A stretch of 64,000 nt of DNA from assembly GCA_900542475.1 (NCBI GenBank), contig UQNO01000002.1:64486-128485 (forward strand), written 5' to 3'. Positions 33,351 to 51,388 of this stretch are shown piece after piece; position 1 is the first letter of the stretch, and each line of letters starts with the position of its first letter. Made by a program: the position numbers and the translations under genes. The notes beneath the pieces were generated by a model. That model made no database searches, was not told the origin of the DNA, and was given only the letters and a program-made list of their open reading frames with translations. Source of the stretch: an uncultured Bacteroidota bacterium. GTDB taxonomy: Bacteria; Bacteroidota; Bacteroidia; Bacteroidales; F082.

Positions 33351-34262
33351 ATGAAGAATGTAATTGCTGTTATTTGGGATTTTGACAAAACCCTTGTTGA
33401 TGGATATATGCAAAATCCTATATTTGAGGAATACCATGTTGATGCCACTGAATTCTGGAAAGAAGTCAATGCCCTTCCCGAGAAATATATGGAAGAGCAA
33501 GGTGTCAAGGTGAATAGAGACCTCATATATCTGAATCAGTTTATTAATGATGCAAAACCAGGAGGTCGTTTTGCAGGGTTGGACAATAAGAAGTTGTTTA
33601 GTTATGGTGAGAAACTGAAATTCTATCCTGGTGTACCGGAAATTTTTGAAAAGACAAAACATCTTTTGGATGACGATACGCTCTGTGGTGAGTATAATAT
33701 TAAAGTAGAACATTATATTGTAAGTACCGGTTTTGCCCAAGTTATTAAAGGTTCGGCTCTCAAGGATTATGTCTCCGGGATATGGGGATGTGAACTTATT
33801 GAGAATCGTGATGATGTGAACAATCCATATATAAGCGAAATAGCTTATACAATAGACAATACAAGTAAGACAAAGGCAATTTTTGAGATAAACAAAGGTG
33901 CTCATGACGACCATAAGGTTGATGTAAATGTGAAAATGAATTTAGACCAGCGAAGAGTTGACTTCAAGAATATGATTTACATAGCCGATGGACCAAGTGA
34001 TGTCCCTGCTTTTTCTGTCATAAAAGGACGTGGGGGAGCAACTTTTGCAATATATCCTCATGGAAGCAAGTCTGCCTTTAAGCAAGTGGAAAAACTACGT
34101 CAAGACGATCGAATTGATATGTTTGCAGAAGCTGATTATCAAGATGATACAACTGCTAATATGTGGATATGCAATAAAATTCAAGAGTTTGCTGAAAGAA
34201 TTAAAGAGCAAGAAAAGTCAAAATTACAGAACACCAATGAATCACCAAAGCACCTTGTGTAG
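33351..34262 (+). CDS. HAD-superfamily hydrolase/phosphatase
   Basis: Motif I DFDKTLVDG (DxDxT). Lies in an AT-rich segment. Confidence 0.65.
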   Translation: MKNVIAVIWDFDKTLVDGYMQNPIFEEYHVDATEFWKEVNALPEKYMEEQGVKVNRDLIYLNQFINDAKPGGRFAGLDNKKLFSYGEKLKFYPGVPEIFEKTKHLLDDDTLCGEYNIKVEHYIVSTGFAQVIKGSALKDYVSGIWGCELIENRDDVNNPYISEIAYTIDNTSKTKAIFEINKGAHDDHKVDVNVKMNLDQRRVDFKNMIYIADGPSDVPAFSVIKGRGGATFAIYPHGSKSAFKQVEKLRQDDRIDMFAEADYQDDTTANMWICNKIQEFAERIKEQEKSKLQNTNESPKHLV

Positions 34263-34305
34263 CTAAATAATTAATTTGAGTACTTGAAGACAAAAAGACA
34301 TAAGA

Positions 34306-34623
34306 ATGTATAAAACAATTGAAATAAAAGACATTATAGGATCTTTCTGTGATATAATGTCTTACCAATTAAGTATCGATATGAATGACGTGAGAGAAGT
34401 AATGAAGATAGTAAATGAAAAAGATGACTTTATTACAACAGTATTCACTCATAAGGCAATATGTCGCGTAAACGAACTTTTAGAAATAGACGTTGATGAC
34501 AACAGTAATTTGATATCCCCTGATGAGACTATTCGTAATGAGTTTATCAGAGAGTATTACCGTGTAGATTCCTCAACCCGTACCATTGTATCAGAAGTTA
34601 TAAGAGAATATATAAAGCAATGA
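34306..34623 (+). CDS. Hypothetical protein (105 aa)
   Basis: ORF between the HAD and HD genes, 4-nt overlap with the downstream gene. Confidence 0.4.
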   Translation: MYKTIEIKDIIGSFCDIMSYQLSIDMNDVREVMKIVNEKDDFITTVFTHKAICRVNELLEIDVDDNSNLISPDETIRNEFIREYYRVDSSTRTIVSEVIREYIKQ

Positions 34624-36050
34624 AAGGTTATAAAATCTTCCTTGATACTGTACATGGATATATTTCTGTACCCAATGGGTATTGTGACAAGTTTGTAGAT
34701 ACAGCCAATTTCCAACGTTTGCGTAGAATTGAGCAGTTATCTTCCCGTTCGTTATATCCATGTGCTCGTCATGACCGTTTCGTTCATTCCATTGGTGTGT
34801 TTCATATTGGAGAAAGGCTTTTGGATACAATCAAGTCTGACGGTGTAGAATTGGATGAAAGTCTGAAGCAGTCATTTCTTATAGCATGTCTGCTTCACGA
34901 TGTTGGTCACTCTCCGTTTTCTCATACCTTGGAGAGTTGTTTTGGTAGCACGTCCGATTTGTTTGACGTGTATAAGTCAGATCTTGTAGCAGGTGGGATA
35001 AAAGACCAACCACTCCAAAAACTTGATGTAACTCAAACGGATGTAAAACAACATGAAATTATGTCTGCTCTTCTATGTGTCACTACATATAAGGATGCTA
35101 TACAGTCATTAAAAGGCGATCCTGCATTGATTGGAAGAATGATAATGGGTTTTCAATATATTGATGATTCAAAATCATTAGAAAACTGTTTTATCTCCCT
35201 ATTACATGGAGATGTTATTGATGCCGATAAACTTGACTATATATGTAGGGACAAATGGTCTTCTGGTTATCAGAACAATTCAGTTGATGTTGAGAGGATT
35301 ATTAAGTCTGTAAAATTGTACAGGGATCAAGATGGGAAATATAGAATTGTTTATTTGAAAAATGCTTTGTATGACATACAGAGTATGATTGACAACAAGA
35401 ATTTCCAAAGTAATTGGGTATTTAAACATCATCAGGTTGTATATGAGCAGAAAATTTTCAAGGATGCTGTTCAAGAATTAGTGAAGAGTTTAGGCAAAGA
35501 AGTCAAGAAAGAGCAGTTGTTTAATTATCGCTCTTTCTTTGAAAAAGTTCAAGTTTGTGATGGCGTTTCTGTTTATATGTTATCAGATGATGATATAATC
35601 CATCTGATGAAGAGTCACTATGAGACTATACCTCATTTTAATGAATGGTTTTCACGCTCGTATGAATATGTTCCATTATGGAAAACATATTCAGAGCTTA
35701 TTGCCATGTTGGGCGATGATTTGAGTGACTTTTTATTGAAAGATGTTGGAGAGGTGTATGACAAGATTGAGGACTTTTTGCGCAATGAGTATAATGTGAA
35801 AGTGTTTACACTTGAAAGTACGCCATCAATGAAAAGTGTAAAACAAGGTCAAGTTTATTTAATGTATGGAGATGATTTGATTGTTGATTATACTGAATTA
35901 GGTATGCCCAAAGCAGATACTACATATAATAATAAAACATTCAAGTATGTTTTCATTGAAAGAACCTTGTTTGAAAAAGAAGGAATCAATCGAGAAAACA
36001 TTGTTCTAAAGATTGTGAATTTTTTGAGGGAAATCAAACATTCTCATTAG
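34620..36050 (+). CDS. HD-domain dNTP triphosphohydrolase-like protein (dGTPase/SAMHD1 family signature)
   Basis: HxxHD(V)GHSPFSH plus downstream DADKLDY motif. Confidence 0.7.
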   Translation: MKGYKIFLDTVHGYISVPNGYCDKFVDTANFQRLRRIEQLSSRSLYPCARHDRFVHSIGVFHIGERLLDTIKSDGVELDESLKQSFLIACLLHDVGHSPFSHTLESCFGSTSDLFDVYKSDLVAGGIKDQPLQKLDVTQTDVKQHEIMSALLCVTTYKDAIQSLKGDPALIGRMIMGFQYIDDSKSLENCFISLLHGDVIDADKLDYICRDKWSSGYQNNSVDVERIIKSVKLYRDQDGKYRIVYLKNALYDIQSMIDNKNFQSNWVFKHHQVVYEQKIFKDAVQELVKSLGKEVKKEQLFNYRSFFEKVQVCDGVSVYMLSDDDIIHLMKSHYETIPHFNEWFSRSYEYVPLWKTYSELIAMLGDDLSDFLLKDVGEVYDKIEDFLRNEYNVKVFTLESTPSMKSVKQGQVYLMYGDDLIVDYTELGMPKADTTYNNKTFKYVFIERTLFEKEGINRENIVLKIVNFLREIKHSH

Positions 36051-36163: not shown

Positions 36164-37372
36164 ATGTTTAATCTCAATAAATTCATTGGTCGGTATGTGA
36201 CCAAGCGTGAAACAAGTATGTTTGCTCAAGATATCGAGTCAAACAAGGAGAAGCTTTCAGCCGAAATTAAAGATAAGAAAGTGTGTGTAATTGGTGGAGC
36301 CGGCTCTATCGGTTCTTCATTCATCAAGGCTGTACTGCGCTTTGAGCCAAAGAGTGTCGTAGTTGTTGACTTGAATGAGAACGGATTGGCAGAGTTGGTT
36401 CGTGATGTGCGCAGTACAGAAGGACTTTATGTGCCTGATGAGTTCTGTTGCTATACTCTCAACTTTGCAGATCCAATTTTCGAACGTATTTTCCGTGAGG
36501 AGAAAGGCTTTGACATTGTAGCAAACTTCTCTGCACACAAACATGTGCGTTCAGAAAAAGATAAATACAGTGTACAAGCACTTATTGAGAACAATGACCT
36601 CAATGCCAAAAAGTTAATGGATTTACTTTGCGTATATCCTCCCAAACATTTCTTCTGTGTTTCTACAGATAAGGCTGCTAACCCAGTTAATATTATGGGA
36701 GCCAGCAAGCGAATCATGGAAGATTTGGTAATGGCTTATAATGAGCATTTCAAGGTAACCACTGCTCGATTTGCTAATGTAGCTTTCTCTAATGGTTCTT
36801 TACCAGATGGCTGGATTCATCGCTTGCAGAAGAAGCAGCCATTGGCAGCACCATCTGATGTGAAGCGCTATTTTGTATCTCTTGAGGAGTCTGGTCAGAT
36901 TTGTATGTTGGCTTGTATCCTTGGTAATGGTGGTGAAGTGTTCTTCCCTAAGTTGGGTGAAGAACAGATGCTTACTTTCTCATCTATCTGCGATGACTTT
37001 ATAAAGGCTGAGGGATTTAAGAAAGTGGAGTGTCAGAATGACCCAGAGGCAAAGAAGTATGCAGCCGAAATGGATTATGAAAGTGACAACTATCCTGTAG
37101 TTTATTTCAAGAGTGATACCACAGGAGAAAAGGCTTACGAGGAATTCTACGTTCCTGGTGAGAAGATAAATATGACTCGATTCTCTGCACTTGGTGTAGT
37201 AGAGGAGACACCCCGTCATCCGATGTTAGAGATTAATCAGTTCTTCGATGAGTTGGAGGGTATCTTTGCCGAAGAAAACTTTACTAAAGCAGAAGTGGTA
37301 GAAGCAATAAAGCGCTTCATCCCGAACTTCGAGCATGAAGAAAAAGGTAAGAACCTGGATTCCAAGATGTAG
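36164..37372 (+). CDS. Nucleotide-sugar 4,6-dehydratase of the CapD/PseB/LegB type (SDR, polysaccharide biosynthesis protein)
   Basis: KKVCVIGGAGSIGS Rossmann motif and a CapD-like C-terminal region. Confidence 0.75.
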   Translation: MFNLNKFIGRYVTKRETSMFAQDIESNKEKLSAEIKDKKVCVIGGAGSIGSSFIKAVLRFEPKSVVVVDLNENGLAELVRDVRSTEGLYVPDEFCCYTLNFADPIFERIFREEKGFDIVANFSAHKHVRSEKDKYSVQALIENNDLNAKKLMDLLCVYPPKHFFCVSTDKAANPVNIMGASKRIMEDLVMAYNEHFKVTTARFANVAFSNGSLPDGWIHRLQKKQPLAAPSDVKRYFVSLEESGQICMLACILGNGGEVFFPKLGEEQMLTFSSICDDFIKAEGFKKVECQNDPEAKKYAAEMDYESDNYPVVYFKSDTTGEKAYEEFYVPGEKINMTRFSALGVVEETPRHPMLEINQFFDELEGIFAEENFTKAEVVEAIKRFIPNFEHEEKGKNLDSKM

Positions 37373-37496
37373 TTATTGAGAGACAAAAAGTCGAAGAGAG
37401 GAAAAAAGACAGATAGACTAAATGTTGAAAAGGTTAAAAGTTGAAGAGATAAAGAGAGTAAAAGTCAAAGGGGTAGAAGTTAAGGAGGCATAGAGA

Positions 37497-37796
37497 ATGG
37501 AACGAAACTTTGAAAACTTGTACATTTGGAAGGAGTCGAGAGTCTTAATTGGGTCTATTTATAAAATGATGGATAAATGTAAAGACTACGGATTCAAAGA
37601 TCAGATTCAACGAGCAGCGGTTTCTATAATGAATAACATTGCCTAGGGACATGAATCTGGAACAGATGCTAAGTTTTTATAGTTCTTGAATATTGCAAGA
37701 GGTAGTTGTGGCGAAGTTCGTTCGATGTTGTATTTATGCGAAGACCTCGGTTTTTGCACCGTAACAGAGATAGAGAATCTCTTCAAATACAAGTAA
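37497..37796 (+). pseudogene. Four-helix-bundle protein (23S rRNA IVS-protein family) disrupted by two in-frame TAG codons
   Basis: MERNFENLYIWKESRVL...NNIA*GHESGTDAKFL*FLNIARGSCGEVRSMLYL matches the family consensus (NNIAEGF.R....F..FL.IA.GSC.E...QL) apart from the stops. Confidence 0.6.
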
Positions 37797-37987
37797 GAAA
37801 AATAACTTCAGGTATTGTAAAATTAGCAGATACTTTATCAAAGAAAAACTCCCCAAACAAATAACCTTTTTTTATATTCAGAGTCTTCGCTTCTTTGCTC
37901 ATTTTGACTCTCAGACCTATTGACTCTCAGACCCTTGGGCTTTCAGACTTTCAGCCTCTCAGCCCTTTAGACTATAAAAATAAAAAG

Positions 37988-39208
37988 ATGGCAGATTATA
38001 GTAAAACAATTGACTTTATCAAGTCGATATATGGCAATCAGGACTTTACTCCATTGGCCGTTCCTGTTTTTGCAGGTAATGAAAAGGAATATCTCAACGA
38101 GTGTATTGACACTACCTTCGTTTCATCTGTCGGTAAGTTTGTGGATCGCTTTGAGGAGGATATGGCAAAATACACAGGTGCGAAGAAAGCAGTTGTCTGT
38201 GTAAGCGGTACTAACGCTTTACACATGAGTTTGCTTCTTGTTGGTGTTAAGCAAGATGATGAGGTGCTTACCCAAGCTCTTACTTTTATTGCTACATGTA
38301 ATGCTCTAAGCTATATTGGTGCCCATGCCGTGTTTATTGATGTAGACCGTTCTACCATGGGACTCTCTCCCGACTCCCTGAGGGCATGGCTACATGCTAA
38401 CGCTGAAGTAAAAGAAGTCAAAAAGGTCAAACGGGACAAAGAGGACTGTTTCTCTTTTAGTCATTTAGACTCTTCGACTTTCTCCTGTTTTAACAAAAAT
38501 ACAGGTCGTCGTGTCAAGGCATGTGTGCCTATGCACACCTTCGGTCATCCTGTTCGCATTGATGAGATTGCTGCTATCTGTAAGGAGTGGCATATTGAAC
38601 TTGTAGAGGATGCAGCCGAGAGTATCGGCTCAACTTTCAAGGGACAGCACACTGGTACTTTTGGTAAAATTGGTGCGATTAGCTTCAATGGTAACAAGAC
38701 CATTACTACTGGTGGTGGCGGTATGATGCTCTTCAATGATGAGGAGTTGGGTGCATACGCAAAGCATATCACCACACAAGCCAAAATACCACACCGTTTG
38801 GAGTTCCGTCATGACCATATCGGTTACAATTATCGTATGCCTAATATCAATGCGGCAATGGGTTGTGCCCAGTTGGAGAATCTTGATAAGTATGTAGCCA
38901 GCAAGCGTAAGGTTGCAGCCGAATATGAGGAGTTCTTCAAGAATGTACCAGATATCGAGTTTTTCGTAGATTCTCCAGATACAGTCTCTAACTATTGGCT
39001 CAACGCCGTTATTTTGAAGGACAAGGAGGCTCAGATTGACTTCCTCACTCAGACCAATGATAATGGTGTGATGACTCGTCCTATCTGGGAATTGATGAAT
39101 CGTCTGCCGATGTTTGAAAATTGTGAGAACGATGGATTGGAGAATACTATATGGTTTGCTGATAGAGTAGTGAATATTCCAAGTTCTGTTCGTTACGGAG
39201 ATTTATAA
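37988..39208 (+). CDS. DegT/DnrJ/EryC1/StrS-family PLP-dependent sugar aminotransferase (LegC/PseC-like)
   Basis: Full-length DegT similarity. Start chosen at the internal Met (MADYSK) because the upstream 31 codons look non-coding. Contains an about 30-aa insertion (AEVKEVKKVKRDKEDCFSFSHLDSSTFSCF) before the active-site lysine region. Confidence 0.8.
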   Translation: MADYSKTIDFIKSIYGNQDFTPLAVPVFAGNEKEYLNECIDTTFVSSVGKFVDRFEEDMAKYTGAKKAVVCVSGTNALHMSLLLVGVKQDDEVLTQALTFIATCNALSYIGAHAVFIDVDRSTMGLSPDSLRAWLHANAEVKEVKKVKRDKEDCFSFSHLDSSTFSCFNKNTGRRVKACVPMHTFGHPVRIDEIAAICKEWHIELVEDAAESIGSTFKGQHTGTFGKIGAISFNGNKTITTGGGGMMLFNDEELGAYAKHITTQAKIPHRLEFRHDHIGYNYRMPNINAAMGCAQLENLDKYVASKRKVAAEYEEFFKNVPDIEFFVDSPDTVSNYWLNAVILKDKEAQIDFLTQTNDNGVMTRPIWELMNRLPMFENCENDGLENTIWFADRVVNIPSSVRYGDL

Positions 39209-39210
39209 AA

Positions 39211-40461
39211 ATGAATGCTTTATTAAGATTTACAATAGAAAATTTCCGTTCTTTTGCTGAGCGGAAATCTCTAGTTTTAAGCCATGCGCCATTAAACGAG
39301 AATAGCACATCGCTGCCTTTTTTGAGGGTTTGTGCTTTGTATGGTGCTAATTCTAGTGGAAAAAGTAATTTGGTTAATGCCTTAGCAAGGATGAGATATA
39401 TCATTCTGAATTCTGTTAAGGTTAATGATGGTGAAGATTTAGAATATGAACCTTTTTTGTTAAGTGATAAGAAAAATGAGCCGACGCTTTATGAATTAGA
39501 ATTTGTTTTGTCAGACAAACATTATAGATATGGTTTTTCGAACGATTCTAAAAGGATAGTGCAAGAATGGCTATATTGCATTAATCCTAACAGTTTAGAA
39601 ATCCCTCTTTTTATTCGTGATCAAGAAGATATTGGTGTAAGTGAGAAGGATTTTCCAGAAGGAGTAGATATGGAAGAGAGAACAAATGATAATCGTCTTT
39701 TCTTATCTCTTGTTGCTCAGTTAGGTGGCTCTTTGTCTAAAAAGATTATTAGTTTTTTCTCTAAGTCTATCAATATCCTTTCTGGACTAGAAACTGATGA
39801 TTATCTGACGTTTTCTGCTCGAATGCTTAAGGAGGAAAAGACCGTTGCATCGTTGATGAAGAACTTCTTTAATAGAGTGCAATTAGGTTTTTCTGATTTA
39901 ACAACACGCACACAAGACTTTGACGCTAAATCTCTTCCTCATGATATGCCTGAAGAATTAAAGAATTTACTTGTCTCTAATTTAACAGGGAAAAAAAGTG
40001 TTTCTATATTTTCTGTTCACGGATGTTATGATTCTGAAGGAAAAGTTTTAGAAAATCGATCTTTTCCTTTTGATAAGATGGAGTCTGAAGGTACCAAAAA
40101 ACTGTTTGAGATTTCAGGTCCAATCTTTGATACTTTATTAGAAGGGAAAATTCTGTTTGTTGACGAACTTGATGCAAAAATGCATCCTCTCTTATCTCGA
40201 GAATTAGTTAGATTGTTTACCGATGAATCTACAAATTCCAAGGGGGCTCAATTGATTTTTACCACTCATGATACAAATCTTCTTTCATCTAATCTTTTGA
40301 ATAGTAATGAAGTTTGGTTTACAGAAAAAGACCAACAAGAACGTTCTGATCTTTATTGCTTGAATGATATTAGGTACTTGGATGGAAGCAGGATGGAAGA
40401 GACTGAATTGATGGAACATAATTACATTCAGGGGCGTTATGGTGCAATACCATATTTGTAG
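39211..40461 (+). CDS. AAA-family ATPase (AAA15/OLD-like, RloA-type partner of RloB)
   Basis: Walker A GANSSGKSN and a C-terminal ATPase lid (LFVDELDAKMHP). The ATG lies 3 nt after the degT stop. Confidence 0.7.
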   Translation: MNALLRFTIENFRSFAERKSLVLSHAPLNENSTSLPFLRVCALYGANSSGKSNLVNALARMRYIILNSVKVNDGEDLEYEPFLLSDKKNEPTLYELEFVLSDKHYRYGFSNDSKRIVQEWLYCINPNSLEIPLFIRDQEDIGVSEKDFPEGVDMEERTNDNRLFLSLVAQLGGSLSKKIISFFSKSINILSGLETDDYLTFSARMLKEEKTVASLMKNFFNRVQLGFSDLTTRTQDFDAKSLPHDMPEELKNLLVSNLTGKKSVSIFSVHGCYDSEGKVLENRSFPFDKMESEGTKKLFEISGPIFDTLLEGKILFVDELDAKMHPLLSRELVRLFTDESTNSKGAQLIFTTHDTNLLSSNLLNSNEVWFTEKDQQERSDLYCLNDIRYLDGSRMEETELMEHNYIQGRYGAIPYL

Positions 40462-40472
40462 AAATATGTGAT

Positions 40473-41222
40473 ATGGCGAAGAAAAAGAATATAACAGAAA
40501 TGAAATATCTTTCTGTTTTCAATCAAAATGAAGATCAAACAAATGCGCATAAAGTAAAGTGTCGAGTGCTCATAGTTTGTGAAGGATTAAAAACAGAACC
40601 AAATTATTTTAAATCGTTTCATATGATGGAAAATAGTGGCGGTTTGGTTTTTGAGATAACTAGTGCGGGTGGTGGTATTAATACTATTCAAGTTGTTCAA
40701 AAGGCGATAGAATTGCGTGATAAAGCTGTTTGTGATAAAAAGCCATACGATGTTACTTGGGCTGTGTTTGATAGAGACAGTTTTGCTGCTGCTGATTTTG
40801 ATAATGCTATACATATGGCAGATTCAAATGACATACGTTGTGCTTGAAGTAATGAGGCTTTTGAATTGTGGTATATTTATCATTTTGAAAACAGAATAAC
40901 GCCAATGTCTCGTAAGGAATATGCGCATAAGATAACAACCTTAGTTCAAGAAAAACAGAAATTAAAAGCAGGTAAAAAGTCTACTTTCGTTTATAAAAAA
41001 AATGATCCGGAAATGCGATCAATTTTGCTTGGTTGTGGCTGTAATGAACAACGAGCTATTCGTTGGGCTAAAGAACAAAGTGAGTCTTTCGATGCGCAAG
41101 ATTATCATTCACATAATCCTTGTACAAAGGTTTATGAACTTGTCGAACTTTTGCTTGGAGAAGACAAAGTTTTTAATGAGAAAATTAGAGCAATAATGAC
41201 TAAAAGAGGATGTAAGCAATGA
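40473..41222 (+). pseudogene. RloB-like protein interrupted by a single in-frame TGA (TGG to TGA at the conserved W of the AWSN motif)
   Basis: Two same-frame ORFs (40473-40847 and 40866-41222). The junction reads IRCA*SNEAFELWYIYHFE, against the RloB consensus IxxAWSNPCFELWLLLHFE. Confidence 0.6.
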
Positions 41223-41860
41223 AACGTCCATTAATTCTTATCGGTGGCGGAGGTCATTGCAAATCTGTGATTGAAATCACTGAAAGTGCAGGCTATGAAA
41301 TCAAGGGAATCCTTGATATGCCAGATGAAGTTGGAAAGGAGGTTCTTCCTGGTCATAAGGTAATAGGCTCTGACAATAATATTCCTCAATATGTTGAAGA
41401 ATGTGATTTTGTCATTACTGTTGGCTTCATCAAAAATCCAGCACTTCGAATCAAACTATATAATAAGGTAAAGGAGGCAGGAGGAAAGTTAGCAACTATT
41501 GTAGCCTCTACCGCCCATGTAAGCAAATATGCCAAAGTTGGCGAGGGTACTGTCATTATGCATCATGCGTTCGTTAATGCTGATGCTAAGATTGGTGATA
41601 ATTGCATTATCAATACTTTCGTTGATATAGAACATGATGCAGAGGTCGGTAATCAATGCCATATTTCAACAGGAACCATGGTAAATGGAGAGTGTAAGAT
41701 AGGAGATAATTGCTTTATCGGTTCTCAATCCGTTTGTGTCAATTGTATCGAAATCGCCTCTGATATTATCGTGGGAGCAGGTTCTGTGGTTCGTAAGTCT
41801 TTACTTACAAAGGGAATTTATACAGGTAATCCTGCCATCCTTAAAATTAAAGCAAAATAG
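41219..41860 (+). CDS. Hexapeptide-repeat sugar N-acetyltransferase (PglD/NeuD/LegH-like)
   Basis: N-terminal LILIGGGGHCKSV Rossmann-like motif plus a left-handed beta-helix. Confidence 0.8.
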   Translation: MKRPLILIGGGGHCKSVIEITESAGYEIKGILDMPDEVGKEVLPGHKVIGSDNNIPQYVEECDFVITVGFIKNPALRIKLYNKVKEAGGKLATIVASTAHVSKYAKVGEGTVIMHHAFVNADAKIGDNCIINTFVDIEHDAEVGNQCHISTGTMVNGECKIGDNCFIGSQSVCVNCIEIASDIIVGAGSVVRKSLLTKGIYTGNPAILKIKAK

Positions 41861-41861
41861 T

Positions 41862-42872
41862 ATGAACAACCATACATTGATTATAGCCGAAGCAGGTGTA
41901 AACCATAATGGCTCCTTGGATATAGCCAAGCAGCTTATTGATGCTGCTGTAGATGCAGGAGTGGATATTATAAAATTCCAAACCTTCAAGGCTGACAAGC
42001 TTGTATCTAAAGATGCCAAGAAGGCAGAATATCAAAAGAATAATATTGGTGACGGTGATGATTCTCAATACCAGATGCTCAAGAAATTGGAGTTGTCTGA
42101 TGAAGACCATCAAGAACTTGTTGCCTATTGTCGCCAGAAAGGTATCCGTTTTTGGTCAACAGCTTTTGATTTGGAAAGCATCGATTTCTTGCATTCTCTT
42201 GGTTTGGGACTTTGGAAAATACCATCTGGTGAAATTACTAACTATCCATTCATCAAGAAAATTGCTCTTCTTCATGAGCCGGTCATCATGTCCACCGGAA
42301 TGTGCGATGAAGAAGATATCAGGAATGCGATGGAAGTATTGTTGAAGAATGGTTTGACGAAAGACCAAATCATAATCTTGCATTGCAATACTCAGTATCC
42401 TACGCCGATAGAGGACGTCAACTTGAAAGCGATGCTCACTATCAAAGATGACTTTGGCACAATAGTAGGTTATTCTGACCATACACAAGGAATAGAAGTA
42501 CCTATTGCTGCTGTTGCTCTTGGAGCACAAGTAATAGAAAAGCACTTTACACTTGATAGAAATATGGTTGGACCTGACCACAAGGCATCATTAGAGCCAC
42601 ATGAATTAAAAGCGATGGTAAAAGCCATTCGTAATATAGAACAAGCTTTGGGTACGGGAATAAAGCAGGTGTCTGATTCAGAACGTGCTAATATTGAAGT
42701 TGCCCGTAAGAGTATTGTGGCAAGTACCTCTATTAAGAAAGGTGAAACATTGTCTGATAATAACTTGGCTGTAAAACGTCCTGGTACTGGTATTTCACCT
42801 ATGCGCTGGGAAGATGTTGTAGGTAAAAAAGCAATTAAAGATTATCAACCAGACGAACAAATACTATTATGA
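41862..42872 (+). CDS. neuB: Nonulosonic acid synthase (NeuB/LegI family, PEP-condensing) with C-terminal SAF domain
   Basis: IIAEAGVNHNGSLD...IKFQTF motif. Start set at MNNHTLII (41862) rather than the track start, which overlaps the upstream gene. Confidence 0.85.
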   Translation: MNNHTLIIAEAGVNHNGSLDIAKQLIDAAVDAGVDIIKFQTFKADKLVSKDAKKAEYQKNNIGDGDDSQYQMLKKLELSDEDHQELVAYCRQKGIRFWSTAFDLESIDFLHSLGLGLWKIPSGEITNYPFIKKIALLHEPVIMSTGMCDEEDIRNAMEVLLKNGLTKDQIIILHCNTQYPTPIEDVNLKAMLTIKDDFGTIVGYSDHTQGIEVPIAAVALGAQVIEKHFTLDRNMVGPDHKASLEPHELKAMVKAIRNIEQALGTGIKQVSDSERANIEVARKSIVASTSIKKGETLSDNNLAVKRPGTGISPMRWEDVVGKKAIKDYQPDEQILL

Positions 42873-44023
42873 GAAAGATTTGTTTTGTAACGGGCACTCG
42901 TGCAGAATATGGCTTATTGAGTCGTTTAATGAGATTAGTCAAGGATGATGAAGATATGCAGCTTCAAGTCATAGCCACTAATATGCACCTGATGCCTGAA
43001 TATGGAGAAACTTATAAAGAGATAGAGAAAGATGGATTTACTATAGATAAAAAGGTCTATATGCATAAACCATCTGATGATGCCCATGGCATTATTTCAT
43101 CAATGGCAGAAGAGATGCAAGGCATGAATGATGCATTGTCAGAGCTTAAGCCCGATATTCTCGTACTATTAGGTGATAGATATGAGATTCTTGTTGCTGC
43201 ACAGGTAGCGTTGATTCATCGTATTCCAATCGCTCATATTCATGGTGGGGAAGTTACTGAAGGTGCATTTGATGATGCTATTCGTCATTCTGTGACCAAG
43301 ATGTCTTCATTGCATTTTACCTCTTGTGAAGAATATCGCCATCGTGTTATTCAACTGGGAGAACAACCATCAAGAGTTTTTAATGTAGGGGCTCTTGGTG
43401 TGGAAAACATCAAGAAGTTCCCGCTGATGAGCAAAACGGAAGTGGAGGAATCTGTCAACTTTAAGTTAGATGAGAACACCATCCTTGTTACTTACCATCC
43501 TGTAACTTTAGGAGAGCATACCACAGAAAAGGACATCAAAGAGTTTATTGCAGCATTGGAAGAGCGCAAGAATTTGAGAGTGTTCTTCACTATGCCTAAC
43601 TCTGATACTGGTTCGCAGGCTATTGTAGATGCTATCAATGAGTTTGTTGCAAACAATGCTGACAGATCCATTGCTTATAAGTCACTTGGCATTAAGCGTT
43701 ACCTCTCTGTGATGAAATATACAGGAGCCGTGGTTGGTAACTCTTCCAGCGGCTTGCTGGAAGTCCCTTCGTTTTGCATTCCCACATTGAATATAGGTGA
43801 CCGCCAGAAGGGTAGAATGGCAGCAGACAGTGTGTATAACTGTGAGACTGATAAAGAATCCATCCTGAAAGGTTTAGAAGTGACTATGTCACCAGCTTTT
43901 AAGAAGAAGGCAGCAGAAACTCATAATCCTTACGAGAAAGCGAATACAGCGGAGGAAATCTTTGAGGTGATAAGCACCTATCCATTGGAACAACTAAAAC
44001 AAAAGCAATTTTATAATTTATAG
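42869..44023 (+). CDS. neuC: UDP-/GDP-N-acetylhexosamine 2-epimerase (hydrolysing), NeuC/LegG family
   Basis: ICFVTGTRAEYG N-terminus and full-length NeuC similarity. Confidence 0.85.
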   Translation: MRKICFVTGTRAEYGLLSRLMRLVKDDEDMQLQVIATNMHLMPEYGETYKEIEKDGFTIDKKVYMHKPSDDAHGIISSMAEEMQGMNDALSELKPDILVLLGDRYEILVAAQVALIHRIPIAHIHGGEVTEGAFDDAIRHSVTKMSSLHFTSCEEYRHRVIQLGEQPSRVFNVGALGVENIKKFPLMSKTEVEESVNFKLDENTILVTYHPVTLGEHTTEKDIKEFIAALEERKNLRVFFTMPNSDTGSQAIVDAINEFVANNADRSIAYKSLGIKRYLSVMKYTGAVVGNSSSGLLEVPSFCIPTLNIGDRQKGRMAADSVYNCETDKESILKGLEVTMSPAFKKKAAETHNPYEKANTAEEIFEVISTYPLEQLKQKQFYNL

Positions 44024-44028
44024 TTTTT

Positions 44029-44751
44029 ATGTACAAAGGCAAAAGAATTTTGGCCATTATTCCTGCACGTGGGGGTAGTAAAGGTCTTCCTGGAAAAAAC
44101 ATACGTGAATTGTGTGGCAAACCGCTCATCGCATGGTCTATTGAACATGCCCAGAAGAGCAAGTATGTAGATGAGATTTTTATCTCGACCGATAGCCAGG
44201 AAATAGCAAATGTGGCAGAGAAGTATGGCGCACCTTGCCCTGAACTCCGTCCTGCTGAACTGGCCCGTGACACTGCTCCTTCTTCGGAGTTTATTGTTTA
44301 TACGCTGAATAAGATGAAGAATGAAAACAAGCCGTTTGACTACTTCATCTTGTTGGAACCTACCTCACCGCTGCGTGATGTTGAAGATGTGGACAAGTCC
44401 ATTGAAATGCTTATTGACAGCCCAGAAAGTGAGAGTTGTGTAGGTGTTGCCATGTCTGGCACTGTTCACCCTGCATTTATGGTTGTTAAAGATGAAAACG
44501 GCTACTTGAAAGCCCTTATGCCTGACAAATCTACATTGAGAAGGCAGGATCTTCCGGATGTGTATTTCTTTGAGGGCAGTGTTTATGTGAGTAGCGTTGA
44601 TGCATATCTCCAGAAACGCACCTTCTATCACGATAAGACCCTTCCTTTTGTAGTGCCTGAATGGAAGAGCTACGAGGTGGACGACTTTGTGGATTTTACT
44701 ATCATTGAAGCAATTATGAAACTTAAGTTAAATGGATATTTTAATAAATAA
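44029..44751 (+). CDS. neuA: Acylneuraminate (nonulosonate) cytidylyltransferase, NeuA/LegF family
   Basis: ILAIIPARGGSKGLPGKN motif. Confidence 0.85.
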   Translation: MYKGKRILAIIPARGGSKGLPGKNIRELCGKPLIAWSIEHAQKSKYVDEIFISTDSQEIANVAEKYGAPCPELRPAELARDTAPSSEFIVYTLNKMKNENKPFDYFILLEPTSPLRDVEDVDKSIEMLIDSPESESCVGVAMSGTVHPAFMVVKDENGYLKALMPDKSTLRRQDLPDVYFFEGSVYVSSVDAYLQKRTFYHDKTLPFVVPEWKSYEVDDFVDFTIIEAIMKLKLNGYFNK

Positions 44752-44759
44752 ACAATATT

Positions 44760-46091
44760 ATGGTTAAGATTGAACTTACGAAGACTGGTAAAAGTCAGCT
44801 CCTTTACAAGGAAGCTAAGAAGATCATCCCAGGAGGTTGCCAACTGTTGTCAAAGAGACCCGAAAAGTTTGTTCCCGAATACTGGCCTGCTTATTATTCA
44901 AAGGCTAAAGGATGCAAGGTTTGGGATCTTGATGGAAACGAGTATCTTGATTTTAGTACGATGGGCATTGGTGCTTGCACAATTGGCTATGCTGACGAGG
45001 AGATAGACAATGCTGTAAAGGCTGCTATTGACAATGGCAGTATGTGTTCGCTGATGGTTCCTGAAGAGGTTGAACTGGCAGAACTACTACTGGAGCTTCA
45101 TCCTTGGGCTGACATGGTTCGCTACGGTAAGGGTGGCGGTGATGCCATGGCCGTTGCCGTGCGTATTGCCCGTGCTGCCACCAAGAAGGATATTATACTC
45201 TTCAGTGGTTATCACGGCTGGCACGACTGGTATCTTTCTGCCAACCTTGCAGATAATGCCGCTCTTGATGGTCAGCTGATGGCTGGTCTTAGTCCAGTTG
45301 GTGTTGCTCGTGGTCTTAAAGGTACCTCTAAACCTTTCTACTACAATAACAAACAGGAGTTCCTTGAGCTAATCAATACATACGGTGATCAGATTGGTGG
45401 TGTTGTTCTGGAAGCTGCCAGAAACATGACTCCTGAGACTGACTTCTTTACTGCAATTGAACACGAAACCCGGCGTCTTGGTGTACCTCTCATCATTGAT
45501 GAGGTTACCAGTGGTTTCCGTATGAACTGTGGTGGTGCTTGCGAATATTTTGGCATCCATCCTGATATGGCAGTATTTGCCAAGGGTATGGGTAACGGCT
45601 ATCCTATTGCTGCCATCATTGGTAAGGAAAAGTTCATGGATGCAGCCCAAGAGAGTTTTATCAGCTCTACTTTCTGGACAGAGCGTGTTGGTTTTGCTGC
45701 TGCAATCGCTACTATTAAGAAGATGAAGCGTGAGAAGGTACAAGACCACATGGTGGCTTGCGGTAAGCAGGTACAGGAAGGCTGGACTAACCTTGCCAAG
45801 AAGCATTGCCTTGATATCCATATCAGCGGGATCTATCCGCTCAGTCACATCTCCTTCACGGCTGCACCTGGTGAGCTAAAAACTCTGTTCACGCAGGAAA
45901 TGCTGAGGAGGGGATTTATTGCCAGCGATGCTTACTATGCAAGCTTTGCTCATAAGGAAGAACACATGGTTAAGTATCTGGAGGCAGTAGATGAGGTGTT
46001 TGCACTGATGGCAAAGGCTGTTAAGGAAGGCAACTACAAACAGTTGCTCCTTGGCCCTGTTGCTCACGGTGGTTTCGTTCGTCTTGCCTAA
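44760..46091 (+). CDS. Class-III PLP aminotransferase (glutamate-1-semialdehyde aminomutase-like)
   Basis: GSA-AT-like fold with VFAKGMGNGYP lysine region. Confidence 0.75.
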   Translation: MVKIELTKTGKSQLLYKEAKKIIPGGCQLLSKRPEKFVPEYWPAYYSKAKGCKVWDLDGNEYLDFSTMGIGACTIGYADEEIDNAVKAAIDNGSMCSLMVPEEVELAELLLELHPWADMVRYGKGGGDAMAVAVRIARAATKKDIILFSGYHGWHDWYLSANLADNAALDGQLMAGLSPVGVARGLKGTSKPFYYNNKQEFLELINTYGDQIGGVVLEAARNMTPETDFFTAIEHETRRLGVPLIIDEVTSGFRMNCGGACEYFGIHPDMAVFAKGMGNGYPIAAIIGKEKFMDAAQESFISSTFWTERVGFAAAIATIKKMKREKVQDHMVACGKQVQEGWTNLAKKHCLDIHISGIYPLSHISFTAAPGELKTLFTQEMLRRGFIASDAYYASFAHKEEHMVKYLEAVDEVFALMAKAVKEGNYKQLLLGPVAHGGFVRLA

Positions 46092-46154
46092 ATAACCATT
46101 GTCTGGTGGCGGCTGACCCAGCCGCCACCAGATACCAATCAAATTCTTGGAGTT

Positions 46155-46889
46155 ATGCTTAGTAATAAAGTAGTCATTATTATTGGTGGCGGTGGCCTTA
46201 TAGGTAGAGAAATAGTAAAGGATGCCTTTAAGAAACATGCCATGGTGGTTAATTGCGACATCGCGTTTGACACAGACTGGGAAAAAGGAACCTATCATTT
46301 GGATGTGACCTCAACAGAAGCAATTGACAAGCTCATTGTTGATGTAGTTGAGAAATATGGCTGCATTGACGGTCTCGTTAATAGTGGTTATCCTCGCACA
46401 AAGGACTGGGGTGTATTCTTTGAGGATATTCCCCTTGAGTCCTGGCGTAAGAATGTGGAGTGGCAGTTGAACAGTTGTTTCTATATTTGCCAGAAGACAT
46501 TGGAGGTGATGAAGAAGCAAAAATTCGGTTCCATTGTGAACTTTGGCTCTATCTATGGTGTGGTAGGTAACGATTTCACCATCTATGAAGGTTATGGCGG
46601 AACTTCACCCGCGGCCTATCCTGCCATCAAGGGCGGTATCATCAATTTCTCCCGCTACCTTGCCTCTTATTTTGGCAAGTACGGCATTCGCGTGAATGTG
46701 GTTTCGCCTGGCGGCATTATTGACAAACAGCATCCATCTTTTATTGAACGCTATAGTGAAAAATCACCCCTGAAGCGTCTTGGGAAACCGGAGGAGGTTG
46801 CACCTGCTGTCAGTTTCCTTTTGTCCGATGAAGCTTCGTTTATTACAGGCCATAACCTGATGGTGGATGGTGGTTGGACTGCCATTTGA
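46155..46889 (+). CDS. SDR-family oxidoreductase (PtmA-like)
   Basis: GGGGLIG cofactor motif and a YxxxK catalytic dyad. Confidence 0.8.
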
Positions 46890-46911
46890 TGCTTTAAGAA
46901 AAAATGATGAG

Positions 46912-47952
46912 ATGTGCATAATGAATACGGATTTCAACTTGGATAAAACAATATTGGAAGCTCTGGTTGAGCTGGAAGATGTTCGCCGCAACCAGACATT
47001 GTTCGTTACGGACAAGGAAGGCCATTTCATAGGAACGCTCACTGATGGCGACATCCGTCGTTATTTGATTGCCGGTGGGCAGCTTCAGGATTCGGTGGGA
47101 AAAGCGATTCATAAAGAGGCTATTACCGTCCATGCTGATGACCCGATGCTGCTTTCTAAATTAAAAGAATATCGTAATTCTAATATTAAATCTATTCCAT
47201 GTGTTGACGAAGACGGTAAGATAGTCAGAGTATTTGATTTGATTCATTATAAGTCTCATCTCCCTATCGATGCTGTACTAATGGCAGGAGGTAAAGGCGA
47301 GCGTCTCCGCCCATTGACCGAAAAGACTCCCAAGCCGCTCATCAAAGTAGGGAATAAGTGTATTATTGACTACAATGTTGACCGCCTGATAGAATTTGGC
47401 GTTGAAAACATCAATGTAACGGTCAATTATCTTGGTGAGCAGTTGGAGGAACACTTTGCCGAGCCGCGAGGCAAGGTTAAGGTGCAGACCGTTCGCGAAC
47501 CCCAATACTTGGGTACCATTGGGAGTATCCGTTTTGTGGAGGAGTTCAAGAATGATAATATCTTGGTGATGAATTCAGATCTCTTTACCAATATTGACTT
47601 TGAGGATTTCTATCTCCATTTCAAGGAGCATGATGCTATGATGAGTGTTGCGTCCATTCCTTACAATGTCAGTATTCCGTTTGGTATATTGGATTTGAAT
47701 GGCCGCAATATCAAGGGATTGATTGAGAAACCCAAGTACAACTATTATGCAAACGGGGGCATCTATCTTATCAAGAAAGAAGCTCTCCAGTATATTCCTG
47801 AAGAAATCTTCTTCAATGCCACAGACCTTATCGAGGCATTAATAAAGACTAACCAGACAGTTATTCGCTATCCGCTGAACGGAACGTGGATAGATATTGG
47901 GCAACATGCTGATTTGGCAAAAGCCCAGGATTTGGTCAAACATTTGAGGTAG
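46912..47952 (+). CDS. CBS-pair plus sugar-phosphate nucleotidyltransferase (PtmE-like)
   Basis: CBS pair followed by MAGGKGERLRPLT NTP-transferase motif. Start ambiguous between 46912 and 46921. The track start at 46867 would overlap the SDR gene. Confidence 0.75.
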   Translation: MCIMNTDFNLDKTILEALVELEDVRRNQTLFVTDKEGHFIGTLTDGDIRRYLIAGGQLQDSVGKAIHKEAITVHADDPMLLSKLKEYRNSNIKSIPCVDEDGKIVRVFDLIHYKSHLPIDAVLMAGGKGERLRPLTEKTPKPLIKVGNKCIIDYNVDRLIEFGVENINVTVNYLGEQLEEHFAEPRGKVKVQTVREPQYLGTIGSIRFVEEFKNDNILVMNSDLFTNIDFEDFYLHFKEHDAMMSVASIPYNVSIPFGILDLNGRNIKGLIEKPKYNYYANGGIYLIKKEALQYIPEEIFFNATDLIEALIKTNQTVIRYPLNGTWIDIGQHADLAKAQDLVKHLR

Positions 47953-48590: not shown

Positions 48591-50114
48591 ATGCAGAATT
48601 CGAAAAGAGTCATTGTTAATACAATAGCACAATATACAAGGACGGTTATCAATATGTTGCTGTCCTTGTACGTGGTACGTATTGTGTTAATTACATTAGG
48701 AGCGAGTGACTATGGCATCTATTCCGTTGTAGCTGGTGTGACTGCAATGCTGGCATTTATTACCAATGCATTAGTCCAGACCACACAGCGATATATGTCT
48801 TTTTACCAAGGCCAAAACAACATGGTCAAAATGAAAGAGGTATTTAGCAATAGCGAGTTCTTGCATTTGATTATTGGTGGATTGTTGGTTGTTGTATTAT
48901 TGGCCTTGAAACCTCTTCTGTTCAACGGTTTTCTGAGTATTGATGCTGAGCGAATAGATGCGGCAAAATATGTGTATCAAATTGTTATTGTCACACTTTT
49001 TATCACATTTTGCACTGCACCTTTCCGATCTTTATTGATTTCGCATGAGAACATCGTCTATATTTCGATTATTGATGTGTTAGATGGTGTTCTACGAGTG
49101 ATAGTTGTGACACTATTGACGTATGTCTCCTTTGACAAATTGGTGATGTACGCTATATTTCTTTTGGGAATACAATTGTTTAACTTTATTGCTTTTTCAT
49201 GGTTCTCATTCAAAAAATACGAGGAGTGCATCCTCCCGAGGATTAGTTTGTTCAGCAAGTCTTACTTTAAAGAATTATCGTCTTTTGCCGGGTGGGTGAT
49301 TTATGGAACAGGGTGTTACATTTTTAGGAATCAGGGTGTTGCAATTGTAATTAATAAAGTCCTTTCGACAGCTGCTAATGCTGCATACGGTGTTGGCCAA
49401 CATATTTCCGTTGCCGTTAGCACGGTATCTGGTTCTCTGATGAATGCTATGATACCGCAGATTGTTAAAGCAGAGGGTGCTGGTAACCGTACCAAGATGC
49501 TTTCATTGGCAACTGTTCTTTGCAAGTTTTCCTTTTTCCTATTGACGGCTTTGTGCATTCCCTGTGTCTTTGAAATGCCCAACTTGTTGCAATTGTGGTT
49601 AAAAGACGTACCAGACTATACCGTTCTTTTTGCGCGTATGGCCATGATAGCTGCCATGGCAGACACGCTTACCGGGGGACTCCATTATGCAAATGATGCT
49701 GTTGGGAAACTCAAGAATTATCACCTCGTTGTTAGTACACTTAAACTATTAACGCTACCCTTATCTGCTATATTTATGTATATGGGTTATGCCCCTATAT
49801 TAATTGCTGTCTGTTTCGTTGGAACCGAGTTTATAGCAGCATTAGTAAGATTACCTTTCCTACATAAAACAAGCGGATTGATTGTCAGTGATTTTATTAA
49901 AAGTGTTTTATGCCGCGAACTTATCCCTTTAGTTGTAACAATATCTATTTGTTTTGCTTGTGTGTCCTTTATTGATTGGGAATGGCGTTTTTTGATAACC
50001 TTTTCCGTGAGTATTCTTTTTTATGCGATAGTCATTTGGCTGATAGGTCTTAACCGACAAGAGCGCACAATGATTTCTTCGATGGTTTTCAAGAAATTAC
50101 ATCAAAAAAAATAA
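48591..50114 (+). CDS. wzx: Oligosaccharide-repeat flippase (Wzx, MOP superfamily)
   Basis: 507-aa polytopic protein (about 12-14 TM) with a Wzx-type N-terminus. Confidence 0.75.
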   Translation: MQNSKRVIVNTIAQYTRTVINMLLSLYVVRIVLITLGASDYGIYSVVAGVTAMLAFITNALVQTTQRYMSFYQGQNNMVKMKEVFSNSEFLHLIIGGLLVVVLLALKPLLFNGFLSIDAERIDAAKYVYQIVIVTLFITFCTAPFRSLLISHENIVYISIIDVLDGVLRVIVVTLLTYVSFDKLVMYAIFLLGIQLFNFIAFSWFSFKKYEECILPRISLFSKSYFKELSSFAGWVIYGTGCYIFRNQGVAIVINKVLSTAANAAYGVGQHISVAVSTVSGSLMNAMIPQIVKAEGAGNRTKMLSLATVLCKFSFFLLTALCIPCVFEMPNLLQLWLKDVPDYTVLFARMAMIAAMADTLTGGLHYANDAVGKLKNYHLVVSTLKLLTLPLSAIFMYMGYAPILIAVCFVGTEFIAALVRLPFLHKTSGLIVSDFIKSVLCRELIPLVVTISICFACVSFIDWEWRFLITFSVSILFYAIVIWLIGLNRQERTMISSMVFKKLHQKK

Positions 50115-50125
50115 AAGTAGTATTT

Positions 50126-51385: not shown

Positions 51386-51388
51386 TGT

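Follow-up and report, generated by a model that had tools for sequence, protein, structure and literature searches.

Which nonulosonic acid is made by the gene set at positions 36164-47952 of a 64,000-nt stretch of DNA from an uncultured Bacteroidales bacterium (contig UQNO01000002.1, assembly GCA_900542475.1; this whole stretch is the window in what follows), on which nucleotide carrier would it be built, and what part is played by a class-III aminotransferase lying among these genes? A first-pass annotation had described the set as a near-complete legionaminic acid (Leg) pathway of the Campylobacter GDP-linked kind in a capsule locus. All nine gene types that it named are present on the + strand within 36164-47952, and nine co-oriented pathway-related genes are far beyond chance. 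From their family membership and closest relatives the region is predicted, with considerable confidence, to make a CMP-activated 5,7-diacylamido-3,5,7,9-tetradeoxynonulosonate of the legionaminic acid type, as the precursor module of a UpxY-controlled Wzx/Wzy capsule locus. Coordinates are positions in the window, on whose + strand all pathway open reading frames (ORFs) lie; these were scanned with Pfam and NCBIfam, scores of curated hidden Markov models (HMMs) are quoted against each model's own cut-off, and negative statements on gene content cover the ORFs scanned between 25 and 62.5 kb.

Legionaminic, pseudaminic or sialic acid chemistry

A blastn comparison with complete Escherichia coli genomes gave only short matches of 66-70%, leading to two annotated O-antigen-type clusters with Leg genes (NZ_CP074576 and NZ_CP045190). 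The window set opens with a 402-aa protein (36164-37372, +; Polysacc_synt_2, 1e-38) that we assign to the soluble, C5-retaining NDP-GlcNAc 4,6-dehydratases of the PglF class (LgaA/Elg1/3PVZ type). Its signature, T168-D-K...M178-x3-K182, is the TDK..Mx3K pattern of the PglF/WbpM class, which a published motif table assigns to C5-retaining UDP-GlcNAc 4,6-dehydratases, as opposed to the [ST]DK..Yx3K of the inverting PseB class. The Mx3K motif is common to the first genes of the two E. coli clusters, to which the window protein is 41% identical, and to a further Leg-type locus (L079); the dehydratases of PseG-containing loci mostly carry TDK..Yx3K. Among solved structures, 3PVZ is matched over the full length with 331 bits, compared with 93 for PglF and 57 for PseB/FlaA1, and the score on the PseB HMM is 66 (cut-off 408).

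The next pathway gene (37988-39208, +) starts at ATG 37988, not at the listed TTG 37895, and encodes a pyridoxal phosphate (PLP)-dependent aminotransferase of the LegC family, predicted to act in C4 amination; it scores 528.6 bits on the LegC model TIGR04181 (cut-off 420) and 206 on the PseC model (cut-off 423.5), and is 50-52% identical to the 'LegC family aminotransferase' of E. coli. The putative 4-N-acetyltransferase of the PglD/NeuD/LegH type (41219-41860, +; PglD_N and Hexapep domains) reaches 196.2 bits on TIGR03570 (cut-off 160.8), a subfamily model that is not LegH-specific, and shares 32% identity with its counterparts in the E. coli Leg clusters. It is followed by a NeuB-family nonulosonate synthase with a SAF domain, the LegI candidate (41862-42872, +; ATG at 41862), which passes TIGR03569 NeuB_NnaB with 516.9 (cut-off 399.65) and fails the PseI model with 306.8 (cut-off 340.25).

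A more informative marker than NeuB is NeuC, represented here by a hydrolysing NDP-sugar 2-epimerase and LegG candidate (42869-44023, +) that scores 479.6 bits on TIGR03568 (cut-off 235.9). Its best solved relative is the Acinetobacter baumannii 'GDP/UDP-N,N'-diacetylbacillosamine 2-epimerase (hydrolysing)' (LegG, PDB 5XVS/5ZLR) with 354 bits, compared with 152 for human GNE, and it is 47-49% identical to the Leg-type NeuC of E. coli versus 39% to K1 NeuC. The CMP-nonulosonate synthetase that follows, the LegF candidate (44029-44751, +; CTP_transf_3), is 37-40% identical to its E. coli Leg-cluster counterparts and 34% to K1 NeuA.

Four independent lines speak for Leg-type chemistry: the dehydratase signature, the LegC match, the NeuC/LegG-type epimerase and the clade of the synthase in the tree described next. 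Several observations weigh against a Leg-type product. Phylogenetic placement of NeuB, which the first-pass annotation had proposed as a check, answers half of the question: in a neighbour-joining (NJ) tree of 54 sequences (that of the window, the E. coli Leg-type and K1 ones, three taken from PDB and 47 from fetched loci that were labelled according to context) the synthase groups with the NeuC-associated sequences, at a wide distance from the clade associated with PseG and hence away from the pseudaminic acid (Pse) synthases, but the tree, which splits PseI from NeuB/LegI, leaves Leg and N-acetylneuraminic acid (Neu5Ac) synthases unseparated, and the window sequence pairs with K1 NeuB on a very short branch. 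Pairwise identities are equally even-handed (50-52% to the E. coli Leg-type NeuB, 51% to K1 NeuB), and so are the solved structures, PseI, SpsE and NmNeuB all scoring 198-206 bits and thus not discriminating. The cytidylyltransferase has its best NCBIfam match in PseF (170, below the cut-off of 205.7) and reaches no equivalog cut-off; no sialyltransferase-like glycosyltransferase able to transfer Leg was recognised in the locus by Pfam, NCBIfam and PDB searches; and the product, its stereochemistry (Leg as opposed to 8-epi or 4-epi relatives) and its nucleotide carrier are all things that we infer from sequence.

The 51% identity to K1 NeuB and the short-branched pairing with it would suit a locus that makes two separate sugars, NeuC, NeuB and NeuA leading from UDP-GlcNAc to CMP-Neu5Ac, and the dehydratase, aminotransferase and acetyltransferase, which alone amount to a complete diNAcBac-type pathway, leading to an NDP-2,4-diacetamido-2,4,6-trideoxyhexose of the bacillosamine or QuiNAc4NAc type. 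We regard this as very unlikely, given that NeuC is clearly nearer to the LegG type, both in bits to the A. baumannii enzyme and in identity to the E. coli sequences, that the aminotransferase passes the LegC-specific model, and that the whole set, including the nucleotidyltransferase with cystathionine beta-synthase (CBS) domains described below, is common to the E. coli Leg O-antigen clusters. A Pse pathway, for which one might cite the sub-threshold PseF match and the residence of most relatives of the class-III aminotransferase in Pse clusters, is exceedingly improbable and, on gene content and motifs, is already contradicted by the sequence: the preference for Leg over Pse in the first-pass annotation holds, since the NeuC-type epimerase is present, an enzyme for which the Pse route has no use, a scan of ORFs between 25 and 62.5 kb brought up no PseG-like protein, the LegC and NeuB_NnaB models pass where PseC and PseI fall below their cut-offs, and the dehydratase carries Mx3K and not the Yx3K of PseB.

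For the favoured Leg-type product, the families present would provide a route of seven steps. The CBS-nucleotidyltransferase (PtmE/LegX type) would furnish a dedicated pool of NDP-GlcN(Ac), GDP-linked at roughly even chances; the PglF-class dehydratase would then carry out a C5-retaining 4,6-dehydration, LegC the amination at C4 and the PglD/NeuD-type transferase the acetylation of N4, after which the LegG-type enzyme would remove the nucleotide and epimerise C2, the NeuB-type synthase would condense the product with phosphoenolpyruvate, and the cytidylyltransferase would activate it with CTP. The class-III aminotransferase and the short-chain dehydrogenase/reductase (SDR) next to it might act as a dehydrogenase/transaminase couple, either on the (CMP-)nonulosonate or in the supply of hexosamine phosphate, which is a guess; the abortive-infection (AbiL) genes and the pseudogene that interrupt the set are later insertions with no role in the pathway.

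Relatives of the pathway and its nucleotide carrier

Judged by its closest homologues, the gene content of the window is of the lga/elg type and not of the Campylobacter/Tannerella type. In NZ_CP074576 (1462947-1471692) the order is UDP-GlcNAc 4,6-dehydratase, LegC-family aminotransferase, NeuC, NeuB, acetyltransferase, nucleotidyltransferase, Gfo/Idh/MocA protein, cytidylyltransferase and oxidoreductase, and NZ_CP045190 (787757-794777) has the first six of these genes plus the cytidylyltransferase. Eight of the nine Leg-pathway genes of the former, i.e., all but Gfo/Idh/MocA, have homologues in the window at 30-52% identity, and the seven-gene lga/elg core (PglF-class dehydratase, LegC, NeuC, NeuB, acetyltransferase, CBS-nucleotidyltransferase and cytidylyltransferase) is complete in it, in a partly rearranged order. 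As in the window, lga/elg clusters, a type seen in E. coli O-antigen loci, in A. baumannii capsule loci (lgaA-G) and in Vibrio fischeri (VF_0140 type), have as their first gene a ~400-aa soluble PglF-class dehydratase with TDK..Mx3K. The window differs from them in that its acetyltransferase precedes NeuB and NeuC, it has no Gfo/Idh/MocA gene, a class-III aminotransferase separates the cytidylyltransferase from the SDR, AbiL and a pseudogene break up the set, and the whole is part of a UpxY/Wzx/Wzy Bacteroidales capsule locus, in contrast with the enterobacterial O-antigen locus of the E. coli clusters.

A GDP-linked Leg pathway in the Bacteroidales is not new, having been shown earlier in Tannerella forsythia: the route encoded by the CMP-Leg locus of strain FDC 92A2/UB4 (BFO_1063-1074) was reconstituted in 2017 with GDP-GlcNAc, and its LegB (BFO_1074), 62% identical to the 323-aa Cj1319, accepted only GDP-GlcNAc (PMC5378307). 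Tannerella, likewise a member of the Bacteroidales, has LegB, LegC, LegH, LegG, LegI and LegF together with a PtmE homologue; its Leg caps a protein O-glycan, whereas the window points to a Wzy-dependent capsule, and neither a class-III aminotransferase nor PtmA is listed for its locus, both types being found in the window, where the SDR is PtmA-like (PMC5378307). The Cj1319-Cj1332 region of Campylobacter jejuni shares LegC with the window, whose LegG, LegI and LegF candidates, PtmE-type CBS-nucleotidyltransferase and PtmA-like SDR also have counterparts there, and accessory genes flank the cytidylyltransferase in both, but in the window the dehydratase is of another class, the class-III aminotransferase occupies the slot of PtmF, the SDR stays below the PtmA cut-off, and the target would be a capsule and not flagellin.

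The Campylobacter label is therefore only partly borne out by these comparisons: the PtmE/LegX-type CBS-nucleotidyltransferase stands and the PtmA-like protein does so weakly, while the LegB type and PtmF do not, and we give the GDP-linked route roughly an even chance. The CBS-nucleotidyltransferase (46867-47952, +; a CBS pair and an NTP_transferase domain in PtmE/LegX architecture, the start being perhaps a downstream ATG) aligns over its full length with the NTP-transferases of the E. coli Leg clusters at 30-32% identity, and among solved structures its transferase domain comes nearest to GDP-mannose pyrophosphorylases. In Brevundimonas (B. subvibrioides), Leg-dependent glycosylation of flagellin requires LegX, which was also needed for Leg synthesis rebuilt in Caulobacter, a host with UDP-GlcNAc, and sufficed, together with six Leg enzymes, for heterologous Leg synthesis; its authors have proposed it as a Leg pathway marker.

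On the other side of the balance, the same Leg-type product could arise via UDP-linked intermediates by a Legionella/PglFED-type route, the CBS-nucleotidyltransferase serving another purpose, either the regulated supply of a UDP-/NDP-hexosamine or another sugar of the repeat unit; this is a serious contender, if a little short of an even chance. Those dehydratases of the window's class (TDK..Mx3K) that have been characterised act on UDP-GlcNAc, in conflict with a GDP route, and at 402 aa the window protein is not of the ~323-aa LegB type of Cj1319 and BFO_1074, the C. jejuni legB gene measuring 972 bp. Cj1319 is presumably RmlB-like, and the window protein reaches only 25.6 bits on the dTDP-glucose-dehydratase model. 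Its best structural match 3PVZ, which we take to be the V. fischeri enzyme, was named UDP-GlcNAc 4,6-dehydratase by its depositors, the name of the solved LegG homologue is GDP/UDP, and no Gfo/Idh/MocA (PtmF) protein was found among the ORFs scanned. A CBS-nucleotidyltransferase is also present in a polysaccharide locus without NeuB or NeuC (L094), so that this gene is not an absolute Leg marker. Yet in both E. coli Leg clusters, and from the literature also in A. baumannii, dehydratases of this class come with PtmE/LegX-type genes; the rebuilt pathway needed LegX although its host had UDP-GlcNAc; and the transferase domain has GDP-sugar-forming enzymes as its nearest solved relatives, all of which argues against a UDP-linked route. 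In L094, which is a bacillosamine-type locus, a small hexapeptide acetyltransferase adjoins the CBS-nucleotidyltransferase (16378-18092 of that locus).

The class-III aminotransferase and its partners

The class-III, glutamate-1-semialdehyde (GSA)-aminomutase-like aminotransferase (44760-46091, +; Aminotran_3) had been noted as an extra enzyme without an assigned role, possibly serving an acetamidino or similar variant. It still has no assigned role, but it is not a local oddity, for it belongs to a widespread family tied to nonulosonic acid clusters, mostly of the Pse type; WbuX/HisH/HisF-type genes, normally needed for an acetamidino variant, were not found among the ORFs scanned. Identity with HemL was rejected, as TIGR00713 gives 205.4 (cut-off 527.3), PRK06209 gives 255.7 (cut-off 486) and all HemL/GSA aminomutase (GSAM) models stay below cut-off; the fold is the same and the PLP Lys/Asp pair is kept, but the gene stands in a polysaccharide and not a haem cluster. 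Among solved structures the protein is equally distant from GSAMs (~137 bits), aminoglycoside C-6' aminotransferases and FumI, and the PLP residues Lys275 and Asp247 are invariant across its family.

When the family peptides YHGWHDW and AQ[DE][ST]FISST were searched in contigs of one genome per species, at least 600 stretches matched, and at least 598 matches were confirmed by tblastn in species-representative genomes, the best 80 of which are 48-67% identical and come from more than 20 phyla, including Patescibacteria and archaea. In these 80 loci ORFs were called and clustered by single linkage and the main clusters annotated, a crude procedure, so that family counts are approximate; nine of the loci have no called aminotransferase ORF, and contexts were counted over the remaining 71. 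Of the 38 loci, the window included, that extend at least 7 kb to either side, 30 have a NeuB-family gene and six of the other eight have other Pse genes, i.e., nonulosonate genes occur in 36 of 38. PseG-type contexts number 21 and NeuC-type contexts six among the 71, the window being one of the six. Where at least three genes were called on each side of the aminotransferase (56 loci), an oxidoreductase lies within three genes of it in 42 (75%; aldo-keto reductase (AKR) in 26, Gfo/Idh/MocA in 11, SDR in 10) and a cytidylyltransferase in 40 (71%), the typical order being PseB-PseC-AKR-(SpsF-type cytidylyltransferase)-aminotransferase-PseG-PseI.

Published clusters show the same arrangement. The group I polar-flagellin islands of Aeromonas read pseB-pseC-AKR-pseF-class III aminotransferase-pseG-pseI, no function being given for the aminotransferase (PMC7874193), and the O-antigen locus of Legionella pneumophila Sg6 has PseG-'GSA aminomutase'-cytidylyltransferase (PMC3694923). 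As in the window, the class-III gene of both lies beside the cytidylyltransferase, with an oxidoreductase, in a nonulosonic acid cluster; they are of the Pse type with an AKR, and the window is of the Leg type with a PtmA-like SDR, a minority context. In the literature that was searched, the class-III aminotransferase of Pse and Leg clusters appears as an annotation only, and no report of an assay was found. The gene is also seen as a natural fusion with the cytidylyltransferase, in proteins of 688 and 695 aa (P0083, at 9001-11088 of L092, and P0069), the former in a PseB-PseC-AKR context and seen in two samples.

In the window, the likely partner of the aminotransferase is the SDR encoded immediately downstream (46155-46889, +), whose best models are PRK09186 (228.6, cut-off 255) and the FlagModPtmA equivalog (152.6, cut-off 350) and which shares 35% identity with the oxidoreductase encoded in the NZ_CP074576 Leg cluster. 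Four other loci (SAR86, Bacteroidota, Chlamydiaceae and Flavobacteriales) likewise have a PtmA-like SDR at an offset of +1 from this gene, and L079 has the order NTP-transferase-Gfo-cytidylyltransferase-aminotransferase-SDR. Oxidoreductases flank the cytidylyltransferase in the E. coli Leg order too, and the C. jejuni order is presumably PtmE-PtmF-LegF-PtmA, with which consecutive accession numbers fit. A simple replacement of PtmF by the aminotransferase was rejected as a general rule, since the two co-occur, as Gfo/Idh/MocA plus aminotransferase, in 14 loci. No DegT-family aminotransferase lies within ~10 kb in 10 of 37 full-flank loci, among them two otherwise complete Leg-type clusters (L045 and L061) in which the class-III gene comes after two dehydratase-like genes. 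A compact module also recurs in Bacteroidales and Lachnospiraceae, consisting of a dehydratase, an SpsF-type cytidylyltransferase, the class-III aminotransferase, NeuB and two proteins of 198 and 209 aa to which no family is assigned (loci behind these observations: L045, L061, L009, L011 and L033); in the NJ tree the NeuB homologues of this compact module stand on a branch of their own within the PseG-context sequences. Our conclusion is that in many Leg and Pse clusters a conserved accessory module surrounds the cytidylyltransferase, and that the aminotransferase is one of its optional members.

What this module does can be stated only tentatively. It is conceivable, if doubtful, that the aminotransferase and the cytidylyltransferase, together with an oxidoreductase of interchangeable type (AKR, Gfo/Idh/MocA or PtmA-like SDR), form a conserved, unrecognised functional unit for a step that textbook Pse and Leg pathways lack, candidates being a C4/C8 oxidation-transamination of the (CMP-)nonulosonate to a triamino sugar, a glutamate-dependent hexosamine route, or C4 amination in the ten DegT-less loci. 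Applied to the window, the first candidate would make the product a modified or epimeric relative of Leg, the aminotransferase and SDR acting by oxidation and transamination on a hydroxyl left free at C4 or C8 of the (CMP-)nonulosonate, or changing the configuration of this sugar, e.g., to a triamino nonulosonate; we would not put this beyond a minority chance. Action at the nonulosonate level is favoured because of the fusions and the adjacency to the cytidylyltransferase, the pathway's final enzyme, which at the same time weighs against a role in precursor supply. The oxidoreductase kept alongside, the interchangeability of Gfo/Idh/MocA, SDR and AKR in its slot, as in known dehydrogenase/aminotransferase couples, and the cytidylyltransferase-AKR fusions reported from Vibrio point the same way; solved relatives include the sugar C-6' aminotransferases of aminoglycoside pathways, and by pathway logic it is at the synthase step or later that Leg and Pse gain their only free hydroxyls. 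Against this, the literature search turned up no report of a triamino nonulosonic acid, the family is common in Aeromonas islands, where an amino-substituted Pse derivative is unreported, and Plesiomonas shigelloides needs PtmA-type genes for Leg itself, a requirement that speaks against a purely decorative role (PMC4481668).

The competing role, which strikes us as rather unlikely, is that the aminotransferase and SDR supply hexosamine phosphate for the NDP-GlcNAc pool in place of PtmF and PtmA, possibly from fructose-6-P via 2-amino-2-deoxyglucitol-6-P and its oxidation at C1 to GlcN-6-P. PtmF and PtmA reportedly convert fructose-6-P to GlcN-6-P, and AKRs are aldose/alditol oxidoreductases. 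This supply role is favoured because of the activity reported for PtmF and PtmA, because no PtmF was found here, the aminotransferase occupying the PtmF slot of the C. jejuni/E. coli order PtmE-PtmF-cytidylyltransferase-PtmA, and because PtmA and PtmF have been assigned to the first pathway segment, GDP-GlcNAc synthesis, a ptmA mutant of P. shigelloides losing Leg-dependent flagellation (PMC4481668). Most members of the family, however, reside in Pse clusters, which draw on housekeeping UDP-GlcNAc and have no PtmE; the co-occurrence of Gfo/Idh/MocA and aminotransferase in 14 loci is not that of a simple replacement; and heterologous Leg synthesis needed only LegX and six Leg enzymes.

The capsule locus, its insertions and its meaning

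The capsule context that the first-pass annotation had proposed is confirmed by a UpxY antiterminator at the head of the locus (25783-26421, +; NF033644, 122.3 bits, cut-off 100) and by genes for a Wzx flippase, a GT4 glycosyltransferase and a Wzy polymerase 3' of the Leg genes (48591-52585, +; Pfam, with Polysacc_synt and Wzy_C domains). Its placement in the Bacteroidales is borne out as well, the EF-G and TrkA proteins of the window falling in 90%-identity clusters named after 'Bacteroidales bacterium' metagenome-assembled genomes, and the same locus with an identical aminotransferase occurs on 22 metagenomic contigs. After UpxY come two NDP-sugar dehydrogenases, a NagB-like/PIG-L protein and RmlA. 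The NagB-like/PIG-L protein, of 734 aa (29127-31331), combines a region resembling glucosamine-6-phosphate deaminase (184 bits, below cut-off) with a weak PIG-L deacetylase region, and as one of the conserved head genes could be relevant to the supply of hexosamine. The locus does not encode PgmL/GlmM and GlmU functions, which housekeeping genes would have to provide. The GC content falls from ~51% in the conserved head (28000-32000) to 34-45% in the stretch that holds the defence, Leg and Wzx/Wzy genes (32000-54000), which fits a horizontally exchanged variable region. A promoter and terminator scan gave about the shuffle expectation with a method not applicable to Bacteroidales promoters, and its result is not used.

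The pathway genes are not consecutive, contrary to what had been stated, but are interrupted twice. Between the dehydratase and LegC lies a pseudogene of the 23S-rRNA-IVS four-helix-bundle family (37497-37808, +) with in-frame stops at codons 50 and 62, which is truncated in sister loci, one of them (L001) retaining a 61-aa PF05635 remnant at this position. Between LegC and the acetyltransferase lies a 2-kb AbiL insertion, composed of an intact AbiLi-type ATPase (39211-40461, +; Pfam AAA_21, PADLOC 280 bits) and an AbiLii/RloB gene (40473-41222, +) split by an in-frame stop into halves that cover Pfam RloB profile positions 1-103 and 111-195 and both match PADLOC AbiLii. The stop (40845-40847) replaces the Trp of a conserved CAWSNEAFELW motif, and because of this nonsense codon the system is probably inactive. 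Known AbiL systems likewise pair an AbiLi ATPase with AbiLii/RloB; here AbiLii is broken and the pair sits as an insertion within an operon for sugar biosynthesis. In three of the four aligned metagenomic contigs (L001, L003 and L005) positions 39182-41233 are replaced by ~380 bp with a small ORF, between flanks of 96-99.5% identity, and this absence from near-identical loci makes AbiL a recent strain-specific insertion into the operon. Upstream of the dehydratase, in the low-GC stretch at 32-36 kb, a PADLOC candidate PDC-S34 (207 bits), a 105-aa ORF and an HD-domain dGTPase-like protein occupy 33351-36050, and in L001 the same position (1-2249 of that locus) holds Hachiman genes (HamA and a DEAD helicase); this position is a second variable defence slot within the capsule locus.

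Downstream of Wzy, a 387-aa protein (52607-53770, +) has no sequence match in Pfam, NCBIfam or PDB, but its AlphaFold model (pLDDT 91.4) matches GT-B glycosyltransferases; its family has ~151 detectable members. A 34%-identical homologue lies next to Wzy, as in the window, in the otherwise unrelated polysaccharide locus L094 (9001-10164), and the protein was not assigned as a dedicated Leg transferase, given that L094 lacks NeuB and NeuC. It is followed, over 53767-62477, by a second NeuD/PglD-type acyltransferase and then by two acyl carrier proteins (ACPs), two FabG-like SDRs, a split transketolase-like pair, an AMP-ligase, a beta-ketoacyl-ACP synthase III (KAS III), a weak GNAT match and an octopine-dehydrogenase-like protein. 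With this acyl-ACP-forming set an amino sugar, possibly the Leg residue, could receive an unusual N-acyl group; comparable ACP/reductase/ligase sets are found between pse genes in the group II islands of Aeromonas.

The Leg pathway itself is textbook knowledge, already demonstrated in Tannerella, and its lga/elg type is routinely annotated in E. coli; the points of interest are the capsule context in an uncultured gut-type member of the Bacteroidales, the pairing of a PglF-class dehydratase with a LegX-type transferase, and the large aminotransferase family. In the review that was consulted, no structure of a Leg-containing capsule is described for Bacteroides or Bacteroidales. Legionaminic acid has the configuration of sialic acid, and a Leg capsule could affect how a gut Bacteroidales strain is recognised by host lectins, complement and phages. 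The same capsule operon carries defence genes at two variable slots, AbiL at one and PDC-S34 with an HD-domain protein, or Hachiman in a sister strain, at the other. The more useful outcome is the aminotransferase family, for which one biochemical study would annotate hundreds of loci: its confirmed matches, at least 598 in number, span bacteria, candidate phyla radiation lineages and archaea.

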